Source: Candidatus Electronema sp. JC (lineage in GTDB: Bacteria; Desulfobacterota; Desulfobulbia; Desulfobulbales; Desulfobulbaceae). Taken from it: a stretch of 24,000 bases of DNA. Positions 10,053 to 19,915 of the stretch are shown piece after piece. The DNA is taken from positions 98,456 to 122,455 of the forward strand of contig NZ_JBLWEM020000070.1 in assembly GCF_048287365.2 (NCBI RefSeq). Reading direction: 5' to 3'. The position numbers were made by a program, and so were the translations under genes. A model generated the notes under the pieces. That model saw only the letters and a program-made list of their open reading frames with translations, had not been told where the DNA came from and ran no database searches. Position 1 is the first letter of the stretch. Each line of letters opens with the position of its first letter.

Positions 10053-10141
10053 CTTCCGCATTCAGTCAAGTTCATCGGCATTATTCAGCAGTAACTCCTT
10101 GTTTATTTTTATCATTTTTTTTGCTTTCAGCGGGTGCCGAG

Positions 10142-11749
10142 ATGATCACCAGAATGAAAATATCAGGCTTCAAAAATATCGTTGATCTTGATGTCCATTT
10201 CGGTCCATTCACCTGTATTGCCGGAGCGAATGGCATAGGAAAATCAAATCTTTTTGATGCGATCACTTTTCTGAGTTTTCTTTCTGAAAAAACATTTATT
10301 GAAGCAGCGATGTCTGTGCGAGGAGAAGGCGGACGGGCTTCAGACGTGAGGCATCTCTTTCACAGGAATGGAGATATTTACAGCAATACTATGTCTTTTG
10401 AAGTCGAACTAATCATCCCTGCTGAAGGAATTGATGACTATGGGCAGCCTGCAAAAGCCAGCATAACTTCCTTAAGGTACAAAATTATCCTTGCATATAA
10501 ACAAGATGACAACCATCCTTCTCAAGGAATGGTCGAACTCGTTCACGAGAGCTTAGAGCCTATAAAAAAAGGAGATGCTGCCAAATGTTTTCTCTTTTCT
10601 CAGAAAGCTGGAACATGGATAAACTCTGCAATCACAGGCCGACGTGCAGGCGGTCCGTTCATTTCAACCACAAAAAAAGAAAGCGATCAACTCATTCAAA
10701 TGCACCAAGACAGCGGTGGTCAAATGCACCAAGGCAGCGGTGATGGGGAGAAAAAAAAATGGCGGCGCGGCAGTGGACGTTCTTTTCGGGCGGCGGCATT
10801 GCCCAGAACGGTTCTTTCTTCTGCTACAAATGCAGTAGAAAGCCCAACAGCCTTGCTAGTCAGAAGAGAAATGCAGTCGTGGCGGATGCTTCAGCTGGAA
10901 CCTTCAGCACTTCGCAAGCCTGACGATATAACCTCGCCGAGAAGGCTGGGGGCAAATGGCGCACATCTGCCTGCAACGCTTTATCGGCTGGCGGGATGCA
11001 GTCAGCAGGATGCTGAAGATGCGGCAAAGCAATCTGATGGGGAACAAACTGACATCGAAAGTCAAGTCTACGCTGAGCTTGCAAACCAGTTGTCTGAATT
11101 AATTGATGATGTTAATACAGTGAGGGTTGATCGCGATGAAAAACGGGATTTGCTGACACTGGAAGTAGTTGACCGCAACGGAACTGCTCACCCGGCCCGT
11201 TCTTTGTCAGATGGGACTTTGCGTTTTCTGGCCTTGTCAATACTCGGCATGGACAAAGAGGAAAAAGGAGTTCTCTGTTTGGAGGAGCCTGAAAATGGCA
11301 TTCATCCAGAACGAATTCCTGCAATAATTCAACTTATTCAAGAGATTTCGACAAACACTGACATAGAGCTTGACGCAGACAACCCTTTAAATCAAGTGAT
11401 TATTAACACCCACTCTCCGGCTGTAGTGGCGCAAATACCAGATGACTGTCTTCTTATTGCTGAATTAAATGAATATTTGAATCAAGATGGAAAACGAGGC
11501 AGAGGTCTGTCGTTAAGCTGCCTTGATGACACATGGCGTGATAAATTAGAACTACGGCAAAAAATTGTTTCCAGAGGCAAGCTGCTTTCATATCTCAATC
11601 CAATTGAGCCATCCAAGGAAATTCAAAAAGATACAGTCGAAGAAACCGATCCTTCTAATAATAAAACTACAAAAAATGAACAGTCGTCACGCAGTCGCCG
11701 CAGAGTTGTTGACAGGATGCAGCAATGGCTGCCCGGTTTTTCCAAATGA
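10142..11749 (+). CDS. SMC/RecF/OLD-type ABC ATPase (AAA_15/AAA_21-like)
   Basis: MITRMKISGFKNIVDLDVHFGPFTCIAGANGIGKSNLFDAI (N-terminal strand plus Walker A), Q-loop-like WRMLQLEP, signature-like LSDGTLRFLALS, Walker B/D-loop VLCLEEPENGIHP, and H-loop IINTHSP. About 320 aa separate Walker A from the signature motif. The ORF opens at TTG 10121; ATG 10142 (or 10154) is preferred. AT-rich relative to the flanks. Confidence 0.88.
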   Translation: MITRMKISGFKNIVDLDVHFGPFTCIAGANGIGKSNLFDAITFLSFLSEKTFIEAAMSVRGEGGRASDVRHLFHRNGDIYSNTMSFEVELIIPAEGIDDYGQPAKASITSLRYKIILAYKQDDNHPSQGMVELVHESLEPIKKGDAAKCFLFSQKAGTWINSAITGRRAGGPFISTTKKESDQLIQMHQDSGGQMHQGSGDGEKKKWRRGSGRSFRAAALPRTVLSSATNAVESPTALLVRREMQSWRMLQLEPSALRKPDDITSPRRLGANGAHLPATLYRLAGCSQQDAEDAAKQSDGEQTDIESQVYAELANQLSELIDDVNTVRVDRDEKRDLLTLEVVDRNGTAHPARSLSDGTLRFLALSILGMDKEEKGVLCLEEPENGIHPERIPAIIQLIQEISTNTDIELDADNPLNQVIINTHSPAVVAQIPDDCLLIAELNEYLNQDGKRGRGLSLSCLDDTWRDKLELRQKIVSRGKLLSYLNPIEPSKEIQKDTVEETDPSNNKTTKNEQSSRSRRRVVDRMQQWLPGFSK

Positions 11750-12381
11750 AAGAAATACGCTGCACACTTCTTACTGACGGCAGTTCTGACAAAGCCCTGC
11801 TGCCAATCATTTCATGGCTCTTCCGGGAGCATTGTCCAGATTTCGCTGTTCAGAAAGCATGGGCAGACCTGTATAGGCTTCCCAAAGGAACTGTGAAAAC
11901 GTTGCCGGATCGCATCAGATTTAGCATTGAGCTTTATCCATGCGATGTGTTGTTTATTCATAGAGATGCTGAAAAAATGGAGCTGGAGGAAAGAATTGCT
12001 GAGATTCAAACCGCTTTGCAAGACACTGAGCATCCGCCGACAGTCTGTGTTGTGCCAGTCAGAATGACGGAAGCGTGGCTGCTGCATGATGAGCCTGCCA
12101 TCCGGCAGGCGGCAAGCAATCCAAATGGTCGGCAGCCTTTGTCATTGCCAAAAATGAGCAGCGTTGAAAATTTGCCCGATCCGAAACAAACTCTTTATGA
12201 CTTGCTGCGGACGGCAAGCGGGCCGATCAGCCGCAGGAGAAATTTTGATCCGGGCAGAATGGCACATCGCGTTGCAGATCGGATAAGCACCTTTGAACCA
12301 CTGCGTCAATTGTCCGCGTTCAGCAGGTTTGAAAGGGAACTTGTGGCGGCAGCCAAGGAGCAGCGTTGGACAATGTCATAA
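11746..12381 (+). CDS. DUF4276-like / TOPRIM-like small protein, partner of the ABC ATPase
   Basis: ATG 11746-11748 overlaps the ATPase stop TGA 11747-11749 (ATGA). Motifs: MKEIRCTLLTDGSSDKALLP (strand plus acidic motif), VLFIHRDAEK, VVPVRMTEAWLLHDEPAI, and NLPDPKQTLYDLL. Layout and length (211 aa) match my recollection of DUF4276. The family call is from memory and the first acidic motif is atypical (TDG rather than EG). Confidence 0.6.
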   Translation: MKEIRCTLLTDGSSDKALLPIISWLFREHCPDFAVQKAWADLYRLPKGTVKTLPDRIRFSIELYPCDVLFIHRDAEKMELEERIAEIQTALQDTEHPPTVCVVPVRMTEAWLLHDEPAIRQAASNPNGRQPLSLPKMSSVENLPDPKQTLYDLLRTASGPISRRRNFDPGRMAHRVADRISTFEPLRQLSAFSRFERELVAAAKEQRWTMS

Positions 12382-16690: not shown

Positions 16691-16720
16691 AAAAAACAGA
16701 GGCAGGCCAGAGACCTGCCT
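16691..16720 (-). terminator. Rho-independent terminator downstream of the ACP gene
   Basis: The minus strand reads AGGCAGG-tctctgg-CCTGCCT followed by ctgtttttt (plus-strand stems 16700-16706 / 16714-16720; A-run 16691-16696). Confidence 0.7.
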
Positions 16721-16752: not shown

Positions 16753-17004
16753 TCAAGCATCCTTCAGCTTCGGCTCAAGATAGTTGACGCAGCTCATCAA
16801 GGTGGCAAGCTGCGGATAATCCTCCTCTGGGACTTGCAGCTTGTGCCGCTTGCGCAGCTCCATGACGATGTCGAGGAAATCCATTGAGTCCAGATCAAGC
16901 TGGTCGCGCAGGGGCTTGTCCTCGTCCAAGTTGTCAAACTCGGCTTCGTCGTCTATATCTTGAATAATATCAAGAATCATGTACTTGATTTCATCACGGG
17001 TCAT
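16753..17004 (-). CDS. Acyl carrier protein (stand-alone, non-canonical acpP)
   Basis: 83 aa, acidic, with the phosphopantetheine attachment context DQLDLDSMDFLDIVMEL. AAGGAG lies 8 nt upstream of the ATG. Confidence 0.85.
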   Translation of the reverse strand: MTRDEIKYMILDIIQDIDDEAEFDNLDEDKPLRDQLDLDSMDFLDIVMELRKRHKLQVPEEDYPQLATLMSCVNYLEPKLKDA

Positions 17005-17112
17005 GCTTCTTGCTCCTTAGAAAATGCGTTAAAGTTCTATACAAAACATCTGGCACAAGCAGGCACAGCTATGTTAAAAACGACTGTCTATAGATAGATA
17101 TTACATTCCTTA

Positions 17113-18522
17113 TTAGAAAGGAACTTCGTCTTCTTGAATTTGATTTATTGCATCATTACTTTCTTGCGGTTGTATTATCTCATCTTTCTCAAGAAGTTTT
17201 CTGAATTCATCAAAGTTATTAGACTCTTTTTCTATTTCCATATAAAAATCTTTCCATTTATCCTTCCTAATTGTTACGTTGTGTTTTTTTGTCAATTCAT
17301 ATAATTGACAAAAAATTATATCCATCCCGCCAGCATGCAAAATTTGATTTATCCTGCCAGCCCTATTCTTTAAAATTCCATCAAATAATATTTCTATATC
17401 GGAATTTTCAAAATATTTTATATGGGGAAGCAAAAAATCTACTCCGTTCTTGTAAGCTGAATCGAAACTGCCTGAAGTCATAAATAGCCTGATAGCTATT
17501 TCCTTTAACGTACTAGAATCAATCCCCTCTAATAGCTCTTTTAAATTATTTTGATTAAAATTATTGATTCTACTCTGCATCATATCGTTTATTTTTAAGT
17601 TCATTGAAGCCAGCTTTGGAACACTGTATTTATTTAGGTCTTTTCCAGACATTGATGATATTGTCGTTTCGAGACGTAAAATTGTAGCCTTTTCAAGGTA
17701 ATTCCATGCTTCGTTTCTTTTAATTAAAAATAGAAATAGTCTTCTGATTAAATAGTCATTAGTTGCAGCTACAAACTCTTTAAATTTTGTTTTAAACACT
17801 TCTATATATATATCATTGTAAATTCTTTCGATGGCTCCTAAAGCCGAACATATTCTTTCAAAGGATTCTAGATCCAAACCATTTTCATCCTTAAATATCC
17901 GTTTTAATAAAATAATTATCAAATTCCTGACGGTACTTTCCTTGGCTTTACCGAGATAATTATCTGACGAAAGAATTGTATAGGCAGAGTCGTCATTAAC
18001 TGGAAACGAGCTGCCTGAAATAAGATTAAATAAACGATCAATAGCAAATTTTCCTTTTACTGGAGGTCTTGATAATAGATAAGTTGATGCTTGGATAATG
18101 TACGCTTTAGTTAATTCAGAAGATGGATCAAATTGACTACCGTCAGCTAAAAAAGTTGGATGGGCGCAAAAGTTTCTATCTTCTTTCAAACGTTCGAGAT
18201 GTTTCTTCTCAATAACAGATATGAGTTCGATATTCTCACATGCATAGTCGAGTATATTACGCTCAAAATCTAACATGTTATTGATGTCATTTTGTTGTAT
18301 GGAGTTTAGTTTTTTTTCTAATTCGCTTGCTGCTTTATCGCCCTCAAGACTTAACTCGCGAATTTTCTCAATAATATCTACGCATACAGCAATCCAAGTC
18401 GAAATTATTGCCGCTCTGTATGCTCCCGCTCTATACGATGCAATTGCCTCTTCTAAGTATTGCTTGGATGATTCGTTGCGGGTTAATTGCCCGATTTCTG
18501 AAAGGTCTTTTACTCGAAACAT
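17113..18522 (-). CDS. Hypothetical protein with an N-terminal HEPN-like domain (R-x4-H), on a very AT-rich island
   Basis: 469-aa uninterrupted ORF in DNA at roughly 30% GC. N-terminal helix YLEEAIASYRAGAYRAAIISTWIAVCVDIIEKI and, about 85 aa later, LERLKEDRNFCAHP (R116-x4-H121, nt 18160-18177). This is the arrangement seen in DUF4145 / Abi_2-type HEPN domains. The remaining ~320 aa are helical, Lys/Asn/Ile-rich and unrecognised. Confidence 0.6.
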   Translation of the reverse strand: MFRVKDLSEIGQLTRNESSKQYLEEAIASYRAGAYRAAIISTWIAVCVDIIEKIRELSLEGDKAASELEKKLNSIQQNDINNMLDFERNILDYACENIELISVIEKKHLERLKEDRNFCAHPTFLADGSQFDPSSELTKAYIIQASTYLLSRPPVKGKFAIDRLFNLISGSSFPVNDDSAYTILSSDNYLGKAKESTVRNLIIILLKRIFKDENGLDLESFERICSALGAIERIYNDIYIEVFKTKFKEFVAATNDYLIRRLFLFLIKRNEAWNYLEKATILRLETTISSMSGKDLNKYSVPKLASMNLKINDMMQSRINNFNQNNLKELLEGIDSSTLKEIAIRLFMTSGSFDSAYKNGVDFLLPHIKYFENSDIEILFDGILKNRAGRINQILHAGGMDIIFCQLYELTKKHNVTIRKDKWKDFYMEIEKESNNFDEFRKLLEKDEIIQPQESNDAINQIQEDEVPF

Positions 18523-18573
18523 TTTTTATTTTATAAACTTCATTGATCAGAGCTTTCTTGCAGCCTGCCCCTG

Positions 18574-18604
18574 AAAACACAAAAGGCAGGCAAGCGGCCT
18601 GCCT
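18574..18604 (-). terminator. Rho-independent terminator downstream of the KAS gene
   Basis: The minus strand reads AGGCAGG-ccgcttg-CCTGCCT followed by tttgtgtttt (plus-strand stems 18584-18590 / 18598-18604). Confidence 0.7.
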
Positions 18605-18667
18605 CCTCTGCGCATCTCCGAAGACCTGACGCTGGTCAAAAAACAGAAAATGTTACCACAGCCCGCC

Positions 18668-19915
18668 CTATTTCGCTACCAGTCTCTTGACGATGAGGGT
18701 GGAATTTATCCCCACCATGCCAAAAGAGTTGTTGAGGATGGTCTCAGCGCGGGGCAGTTTCTGCGCTTCGCCGCTGACCAAACCTGACAACGCGCATTCC
18801 GGGTCCAACTCGTCGAGATTGATAGTCGGATGGGCCAAGCCGTCCTCGAAAGCAGGCAGATTGGCAGCCAGCTCCAGCACACCAGCGGCCCCCATCGCGT
18901 GGCCGATGATGGACTTGGTGTTGTTCACCCTCAGATTCTCGCAGCCTGCAAAGACTTCGGCAATAGCCCGGCATTCCTCAATATCGCCCTGCTTGGTGCC
19001 GGTGGCATGAGTGTTGACCAAATCTATGTCCGCCGGAGTCATGCCCGCCCGCTCCAAGGCCAAGCGAATGCACTCTGCCTGACGCGGGCCGTAGGGCAGG
19101 ACAAAGTCGCGGGCATCGGAGTTCATCGCATAGCCGACGATCTCGCCGTATATCTTCGCGCCGCGCTCCACCGCCTTGTCCATGCGCTCCAGCACGAAGA
19201 CGCAACCGCCTTCAGAAATGACAATGCCGTTCCTCGCCTGATCAAAAGGACGGCTGGCCTTAGTCGGATCAGCATGTTCAGCCAAAGCACCTTGCGCCCG
19301 GAAGCTGGCGAAGATACCGAAAGAGCCGGTGCATTCGGATAGGCCGCCGCAAAGGGCCATGTCCACTTCTCCCAAGCGCAGCATCTGGCAGCCCTGAATC
19401 AGGGCGGCGTTGCCAGCAGCACAGGCCGCGCCCACCGAGTAGTGCGGCCCGGTGATGCCGAAGGTCATGGTGATTTCGCCCGCCGGGTTGTTGAGCACGG
19501 TGCGCGGGTTGTGGTGGTGCGTCCAGTAATCAACGTTGTAGTTGTATTGACTGATATTATAGACCTCGTTCTCGGTCTCCACCGTGCCGTGCTCGGTCAG
19601 GCCCATGTACACGCCGGTGCGGTCGAGGCGGTATTGGGTGAAATCAATGCCCGCGTCGGCCAGTGCTTCTCCAGCGCAGTACACGCCCAAACAGCCCGCC
19701 CGTGTGCCGCGCTTGTTGTCGCGCTTCTTCCGGTATTTGGTCTCCGGGAAATCGCACAGTCCGGCGGGATGCACGCCCATGTAGCGCATTTCCAAGGTGG
19801 AAATGCCGCTGCGCCCGGCCAAGACCTGCGCCCGGAACTCCGCCAAGGTGCTGGTTCCGCCCGGCGCGGCCAAACCCACGCCGGTGATGACGATGCGCTG
19901 CGAATCCGCCATCAT
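18668..19915 (-). CDS. Beta-ketoacyl-ACP synthase family protein (KAS I/II-like, divergent)
   Basis: IVITGVGLAAPGG, active-site Cys in SVGAACAAGNAAL, and the His pair in VNTHATGT and SIIGHAMGAAG. ATG 19913-19915 overlaps the alaS stop TGA 19912-19914. Confidence 0.92.
   Translation of the reverse strand: MMADSQRIVITGVGLAAPGGTSTLAEFRAQVLAGRSGISTLEMRYMGVHPAGLCDFPETKYRKKRDNKRGTRAGCLGVYCAGEALADAGIDFTQYRLDRTGVYMGLTEHGTVETENEVYNISQYNYNVDYWTHHHNPRTVLNNPAGEITMTFGITGPHYSVGAACAAGNAALIQGCQMLRLGEVDMALCGGLSECTGSFGIFASFRAQGALAEHADPTKASRPFDQARNGIVISEGGCVFVLERMDKAVERGAKIYGEIVGYAMNSDARDFVLPYGPRQAECIRLALERAGMTPADIDLVNTHATGTKQGDIEECRAIAEVFAGCENLRVNNTKSIIGHAMGAAGVLELAANLPAFEDGLAHPTINLDELDPECALSGLVSGEAQKLPRAETILNNSFGMVGINSTLIVKRLVAK

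Follow-up and report, generated by a model that had tools for sequence, protein, structure and literature searches.

The locus considered here raises the question of what a lone AT-rich gene encodes, and how it came to lie between two core genes, in the cable bacterium Candidatus Electronema sp. JC. The DNA examined is a stretch of 24,000 nt (contig NZ_JBLWEM020000070.1, positions 98,456 to 122,455), referred to below as the window, and the gene is an intact open reading frame (ORF) at 17113..18522, sited between the genes for a beta-ketoacyl synthase (KAS) and an acyl carrier protein (ACP) and encoding 469 aa. Coordinates are window positions unless another contig is named, and the gene, its parts and the flanking features of its insertion site are all on the minus strand. 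A hypothetical protein of Candidatus Electronema sp. JC (P0001) matches the product at 100% identity. A first-pass annotation made from the sequence alone had described it as a recently acquired HEPN ribonuclease (RNase) of abortive-infection or toxin type with a novel C-terminal sensor. The analysis presented here supports the view that the gene is horizontally acquired cargo and encodes a single-protein abortive-infection RNase with an N-terminal HEPN domain; the novelty and the recency did not hold. The gene is very probably a divergent member of the known PD-T7-3/DARNA family of single-protein abortive-infection RNases, with a mechanism proposed by homology, residing in an integrase-free slot of Electronema.

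Family identity and domain organization

In PADLOC, the protein matched the PD-T7-3 profile PDLC04108 (E = 5.1e-39), with residues 15-387 aligned to profile positions 14-393 of 432. The ~320 residues that had been called unrecognized cannot be regarded as such, since the profile spans residues 15-387. Sequence matches in the PDB were to 9wx2, named "Dandelion-hepn" (E = 1.3e-13, aa 17-155), and 9wxf, named "Dandelion" (E = 2.9e-13; 12 chains, 460 aa). The 9wxf residues N38, R103, R122, H127, K206 and K209 correspond to DARNA N33, R98, R117, H122, K201 and K204, and from this constant offset of 5 residues we infer that 9wxf represents either E. coli PD-T7-3/DARNA itself or a homolog very close to it; a literature search for "Dandelion" with HEPN found no relevant paper. 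In a profile comparison by hhalign, clade A1 (that of the window protein, with 61 sequences) matched clade A2 (the E. coli type, with 28) at 99.9% probability (E = 8e-36) over 431 columns covering both domains. The C-terminal region thus cannot count as a new sensor, being homologous over its full length to the domain with which DARNA senses single-stranded DNA (ssDNA). The PD-T7-3/DARNA family is already in PADLOC, with solved structures, and the protein belongs to a known kind.

The phage defense activity of PD-T7-3 has been reported (PMC9519451), and a preprint renames the protein DARNA and describes its structure and activity (bioRxiv 10.64898/2026.02.22.705581). According to that work, the HEPN domain (aa 1-159) carries the catalytic R117-x4-H122 motif, of which H122A is an inactive variant, and a Pds5-like helical C-terminal domain binds "CT" motifs in ssDNA via F368, D372, Q403 and W406. 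Activity requires a D2 dodecamer; the ssDNA-activated enzyme cuts tRNA anticodon loops, leading to abortive infection, and it discriminates ssDNA bound by phage ssDNA-binding protein (SSB) from ssDNA bound by host SSB (bioRxiv 10.64898/2026.02.22.705581).

The window protein resembles DARNA in being the product of a stand-alone gene of similar length (469 aa versus 455-456 aa), in having an N-terminal HEPN domain with an R-x4-H motif at the same position (R116/H121 versus R117/H122), and in having a homologous helical C-terminal domain in which the thymine-binding F and N-Q residues are kept. The features quoted in the first-pass annotation were all found in the intact ORF: a helix, YLEEAIASYRAGAYRAAIISTWIAVCVDIIEKI, followed by LERLKEDRNFCAHP (containing R116, N117 and H121), and an acidic tail ending in IQEDEVPF. 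The HEPN domain, assigned from the 9wx2 match, a domain model and Foldseek, occupies approximately aa 1-160 (18043..18522), and within it the catalytic motif R116-N-F-C-A-H121 lies at 18160..18177, identified by its invariance in 61 homologs and by the DARNA residue map. An all-helical solenoid predicted from hhalign, the residue map and the structure model follows at approximately aa 161-448 (17179..18042). In it, the codon for F353 (17464-17466) encodes the equivalent of the DARNA thymine-binding residue F368, and those for N392 and Q393 (17344-17349) encode the equivalents of N402 and Q403. The protein ends in an acidic tail of aa 449-469 (17116..17178), which terminates in E-D-E-V-P-F and is delimited by low model confidence and by comparison with the ends of homologs.

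The full-length AlphaFold model is all-helical with a mean confidence score (pLDDT) of 92.6, with roughly the last 20 residues at low confidence; the pLDDT of the C-terminal domain is above 90, and that of the tail (aa 449-469) is 53-68. A full-length Foldseek search of the PDB returned weak matches to ARM/HEAT solenoids alone, which agrees with the Pds5-like description of DARNA without being diagnostic; 9wxf was not retrieved by this search and is presumably outside the fold library. Residues 1-162 modeled separately (pLDDT 87) matched AF_0298 (2hsb) best, with a probability of 0.96 and a TM score of 0.60 on the target, and the other top ranks were SSO P95883 (2q00), ST0689 (1wol), TT1696 (1ufb), HepT (7bxo, 5yep), the sacsin HEPN domain (3o10) and TM0613 (1o3u). 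The N-terminal domain is thus predicted to have the HEPN fold that the first-pass annotation had assigned to it, although the E-values of these matches are weak (see below).

With a threshold of E ≤ 1e-3, a profile search of 1.84 billion representative sequences found 2742 clusters, of which 1048 also passed E ≤ 1e-30. The nearest relatives at 40-51% identity are mostly from marine Gammaproteobacteria (Pseudoalteromonas, Marinobacter, Vibrio, Halomonas, Legionella), and just three metagenomic proteins, at 60-69% identity, are closer. In the phage database there was one partial match, together with the E. coli-type ORF1 of the P2-EC30 prophage Z-region. Proteins encoded on plasmids of Burkholderia, Ralstonia, Rhizobium, Streptomyces and, in many cases, Enterococcus match the HEPN part (approximately residues 6-210/290); because these matches cover just 42-61% of the query, they suggest that the HEPN module is joined to other C-terminal regions on plasmids. 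No match was found in a Pfam-A release older than PF27235, even at E = 10, and NCBIfam gave noise alone (pelota, E = 0.003, far below cutoff). The precomputed Pfam family PF27235 (AF_1680) marks the window clade and not the E. coli clade, and PADLOC also returned a marginal match to CARF_HEPN (E = 0.028).

Residues kept, residues lost and an SSB-like tail

DARNA residues with experimental validation were mapped onto the window protein, and their conservation was counted in the 61 homologs. R116, H121, D115 and P122 are invariant (61/61), as had been expected of the catalytic pair, R116 and H121 corresponding to DARNA R117 and H122. The thymine-stacking F368 corresponds to F353, a position held by F or Y in all 61 sequences, and the thymine-hydrogen-bonding Q403 to Q393, kept in 60; the ssDNA-contacting N402 is represented by N392 (54/61), and a further contact, Y405, is replaced by L395 and not kept.

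Several observations weigh against a simple transfer of the DARNA mechanism. BLASTP against P0121, an E. coli-type member 94% identical to the 9wxf fragment, aligned the HEPN domain alone at 25% identity and did not detect the C-terminal domain; overall identity to DARNA is ~18-20% at the profile level, and the Foldseek E-values for the HEPN fold are 0.65 or higher. The cytosine-specific D372 is replaced by Y357 (E or Y in the window clade), and the stacking residue W406, itself variable within the E. coli clade, is replaced by H396. The docking residues K69, R98, K201 and K204 correspond to E67, N97, N200 and I203, and the window clade mostly has E/D/Q, N and I in these columns, which leaves it without the basic tRNA-docking patch of DARNA. 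At the dodecamer interface, F6 and N33 are replaced by K5 and A32, and E347 is unaligned. Since docking, cytosine-reading and interface residues are all unconserved, the RNA substrate, the preferred activator sequence and the oligomeric state may each differ from those of DARNA.

By homology to E. coli DARNA, the HEPN domains would pair to form the active site, and the C-terminal domains would bind ssDNA exposed during phage replication. Binding would switch on cleavage of cellular RNA, probably at tRNA anticodon loops, after which translation would halt and the infection abort. The strongest competitor keeps the fold family and changes the trigger or the substrate: the trigger would be a phage protein, an RNA or, through the tail, the SSB interaction network, and the RNA cut would be something other than anticodon loops. 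This reading draws on the loss of the RNA-docking patch and of half of the ssDNA contacts, on a 5-residue insertion that hhalign places ahead of the N-Q motif in the window clade, on an SSB-like tail specific to the subclade, and on the plasmid-borne proteins in which the HEPN domain accompanies other C-terminal regions. We nevertheless consider it rather unlikely, as the C-terminal domains align over their full length and the thymine-reading F and Q are nearly invariant in both clades.

The tail sets the window protein apart from the close E. coli-type proteins, which do not end in this way. Among 116 full-length window-clade proteins, an acidic run and then -P-F make up the end of 69; the residue at position -3 is most often I (39 proteins), followed by F (8), L (5), P (5) and V (4), and D or E predominates at positions -4 to -8. 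The end [DE][DE][IVLFM]PF is found in 32 of them and the exact sequence DDDIPF in 7. An SSB-like tip is found in none of the close E. coli-type DARNA members, in 7/108 proteins of the wider E. coli-type clade and, rarely, in more distant representatives (12/127). Bacterial SSB ends in the conserved hexapeptide DDDIPF, at which SSB-interacting proteins dock (PMC5872125, PMC10164576). The EDEVPF end of the window protein resembles this D-D-D-I-P-F tip, a likeness that could be convergent or unrelated. Such a tail is not mentioned in the DARNA preprint (bioRxiv 10.64898/2026.02.22.705581), and a literature search for DDDIPF in defense proteins found no description of such tails on defense effectors.

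An SSB-like tail attached to an ssDNA-sensing domain is suggestive because DARNA tells phage-SSB-bound from host-SSB-bound ssDNA, and it could act in two ways. The acidic tails of SSB and T7 gp2.5 occupy the DNA-binding clefts of their own proteins, and the tail of the window protein could likewise be an ssDNA mimic in cis that fills the protein's own pocket for ssDNA, setting the threshold of activation. It could also be a tether or decoy through which, at replication forks, the RNase joins the SSB interaction network. If true, either role would add a second SSB-linked layer of control to a sensor that discriminates phage SSB from host SSB. We tentatively extend the family assignment with a two-part proposal, namely that the disordered tail is a functional mimic of the SSB C-terminal tip and that the KAS-ACP site is an integrase-free slot whose co-oriented cargo is expressed through the KAS terminator; taken together, this is a possibility short of being probable.

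The KAS-ACP slot: borders, cargo and age

The gene has ~31% GC overall in a host genome of roughly 60%. GC is 0.29-0.35 within the gene versus 0.58-0.67 in the flanks, with steps at ~17000-17150 and 18500-18650, so that the abrupt low-GC island noticed in the first-pass annotation is confirmed; GC at third codon positions (GC3) is 0.28 in the gene versus 0.77 in KAS and AlaS. No integrase or transposase adjoins the gene, and its neighbors are all housekeeping genes, the flanking genes being those for AlaS, KAS, ACP, an FAD oxidoreductase, a sigma factor and DegT. A scan of the whole window found no tRNA and no Rfam family. The upstream core flank is KAS (18668..19915), identified by a Pfam ketoacyl-synt match on the ortholog in the metagenomic contig L082, and the downstream flank is the 83 aa ACP (16753..17004; Pfam PP-binding), which neighbors KAS in all relatives.

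To place the gene in a wider setting, GTDB species genomes were scanned with KAS, yielding 80 loci at about 70-97% KAS identity. The distance between KAS and ACP is 37-533 nt in 73 Desulfobulbales loci from outside Electronema (Ca. Electrothrix among them), and the AT-rich gene is therefore a true insertion. The spacer of six Ca. Electronema genomes is 731-3417 nt long and holds differing low-GC cargo; no DARNA homolog was found in these six spacers or elsewhere among the 80 loci. The absence of the gene from the 80 loci shows that it is not a fixed partner of ACP. The cargo of L001 is a protein with TIR-like/Nuc_deoxyrib_tr and S1 regions plus a membrane protein, and L006 (E. nielsenii) shares the start of this cargo. 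A membrane protein is found in L002, BrnT/BrnA in L003, and two membrane proteins with a BrnA-like remnant in L008; L004 and L005 carry an ATP-grasp-S58 peptidase fusion and a histone-deacetylase-family deacetylase. This last pair has no PADLOC match and may be an unrecognized system. All of the spacer cargo has a GC content below that of the flanks and the same orientation as the operon.

Comparison with relatives places the insertion junctions at 18574|18573, where identity with L006 ends, and at about 17063|17064, the downstream junction being taken from the aligned spacer ends of 7 Electronema/Electrothrix loci. The variable segment is thus ~1510 bp (17064..18573) and consists of the ORF with 51 nt upstream and 49 nt downstream. 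The borders common to Electronema are, at the upstream edge, a terminator-like hairpin and T-run after KAS (18581..18607, with the shared border extending to 18574), located by terminator scan, folding and conservation, and, at the downstream edge, the last ~59 nt ahead of the ACP start (17005..17063), an aligned and conserved leader containing the ribosome-binding site AAGGAGCAAGAAGC. The hairpins after KAS (18575-18604) and after ACP (16691-16720) are alike (GGCAGGC...GCCTGCC, 77% over 30 nt), and each may be a copy of a terminator or repetitive extragenic palindromic (REP)-like element that recurs in this genome. Imperfect direct repeats had been pointed out at the two borders, GCTTCTTGC (17005-17013) and GCTTTCTTGC (18552-18561). 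Both copies exist; their pattern, found 2 times versus 1.27 expected and at least 2 times in 36/100 shuffles, occurs at chance frequency and carries no meaning for insertion. As target-site duplications they were rejected on this ground and because the 17005-17013 copy falls within the ribosome-binding region of ACP, a stretch also conserved where Electronema genomes carry other cargo, and therefore host sequence and not an insertion scar.

Conserved borders enclosing different cargo point to the spacer being a cargo-swapping hotspot of Electronema that works without an integrase. Cargo would be exchanged between lineages, most likely via homologous recombination in the conserved flanks, which is the simplest mechanism. 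The first-pass annotation's 108-nt gap between the gene and ACP contains no terminator-like hairpin, as it had stated, and folds with the same energy as shuffled sequence (z = -0.08); given the lack of a terminator, read-through from the gene into ACP is plausible. A consensus scan of the minus strand of the 51-nt upstream cargo found no promoter, and no recognizable Shine-Dalgarno sequence precedes the gene; the AT-rich sequence TATAAAAT 6 nt upstream of the ATG is not relied on as a promoter. In L082, the ATG of the homologous gene is ~15 nt past the KAS terminator T-run, a short distance that leaves little room for a promoter of its own and makes read-through from KAS, and onward into ACP, plausible.

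HEPN toxins such as HepT are common, and BrnT/BrnA occupies the same slot in another Electronema genome, so the gene might be considered the toxin of a toxin-antitoxin module or a locus-stabilizing addiction gene with no role in phage defense. We judge this quite improbable: unlike HepT with its MntA antitoxin, the gene has no adjacent antitoxin gene, there is no second ORF in the 1510-bp cargo, where just 51 and 49 nt accompany it, and no neighbor is conserved in the three homologous loci L081, L082 and L085. The family moreover has experimental anti-phage activity (PMC9519451; PMC10799925 for BxaP). In L081, a metagenomic contig, the homolog (P0003, 8001-9398, 61% identical) is a lone low-GC gene (0.32-0.38 versus ~0.53) flanked by multihaem cytochrome/NrfD genes on one side and by a deaminase/radical-SAM pair on the other, and the clade is thus repeatedly found as single-gene insertions among housekeeping genes.

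A recent acquisition, which the first-pass annotation had supposed, is not supported. An allele with 69% identity (P0002) and a GC content of 0.32 fills this slot, between the same borders, in the metagenomic contigs L082 and L083. Divergence between the window and L082 at synonymous (dS) and nonsynonymous (dN) sites, calculated by the Nei-Gojobori method for this one lineage pair with a simple estimator and with dS nearing saturation, was dS 0.80 and dN 0.20 for the DARNA-like gene (L082 3433-4830), 0.76 and 0.06 for AlaS, 0.82 and 0.05 for KAS, 0.99 and 0.13 for the FAD oxidoreductase, and 1.23 and 0.08 for ACP. The dS of the gene equals that of KAS and AlaS, which argues that the gene was already in the slot in the common ancestor of the window and L082 lineages. 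The gene would later have been replaced in closer relatives of the window genome, L001, L002 and L006, whose KAS is 97-98% identical to that of the window. Its dN/dS of ~0.25 indicates purifying selection on a protein that evolves faster than its flanks. GC3 has been held at 0.25-0.28 in hosts with a GC3 of 0.67-0.81 over a dS of ~0.8, so that low GC is no sign of recency here; amelioration may have been prevented by selection in favor of AT-rich sequence, by low expression or by silencing. A decaying or silent foreign gene of no present function, as its GC3 of 0.28 in a host of 0.77 and its lack of a recognizable Shine-Dalgarno sequence or promoter might suggest, is very improbable indeed, since the ORF is intact in both lineages, dN/dS is ~0.25 at a dS of 0.8 and every family-invariant residue is kept.

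Related systems and significance

Apart from the residues and tail discussed above, the genetic setting of the PD-T7-3/DARNA-like gene differs from that of the E. coli type, which is found in the P2 prophage Z-region, whereas the window gene lies in a chromosomal operon. The window protein also lacks R98/K201/K204, D372, W406 and the interface residues F6/N33 of the E. coli protein. By description, BxaP of Akkermansia muciniphila is likewise a single protein with a HEPN-type N-terminal domain (DUF4145, HHpred) and a HEAT-like C-terminal domain that acts by abortive infection, and it was described as structurally similar to PD-T7-3; it differs in lying within BREX type 3 loci or type I restriction-modification loci (PMC10799925). 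Csm6, HepT and ApeA share the HEPN fold, the catalytic dyad and roles in defense or toxicity, but are regulated differently (CARF, MntA antitoxin) and show no homology outside the HEPN core; in ApeA the HEPN domain is C-terminal, whereas in the window protein it occupies residues 1-160. Integrase-free defense hotspots flanked by core genes have been described in Pseudomonas and Vibrio, with strain-specific defense or toxin-antitoxin cargo of low GC and no recombinase. The Electronema slot shares these properties and differs in lying inside a co-directional alaS-KAS-ACP-oxidoreductase string, in its size of 0.7-3.4 kb and in the co-orientation of its cargo.

A second defense locus lies about 5 kb from the DARNA-like gene, at 10121-12381 on the plus strand. 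It encodes a 542 aa AAA_21/AAA_15 ATPase, which matches PADLOC HEC-01A (E = 1.2e-95), and, overlapping the ATPase gene, a 218 aa DUF4276 protein, which matches HEC-01B (E = 1.6e-23). Its GC content of 0.43-0.48 versus ~0.60 in the surroundings marks it as another foreign island.

The main outcome of this analysis is a correction: an apparently new HEPN effector belongs to PD-T7-3/DARNA, a family with a structure and a trigger reported in 2026, and the locus may thus be annotated with a concrete mechanism. We know of no studied phage defense in cable bacteria, and a DARNA-type system is now placed in these organisms beside a second defense locus, HEC-01. Two points keep their interest, namely the divergent clade, with its lost tRNA patch and SSB-like tip, and the operon-embedded cargo slot: a small site of cargo exchange within a conserved gene string, in which an AT-rich gene has persisted unameliorated over a dS of ~0.8. 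A clade that keeps the catalytic and thymine-reading residues, has lost the tRNA-docking patch and has gained an SSB-tip-like tail is a natural experiment for separating trigger recognition, substrate choice and SSB coupling in this family.

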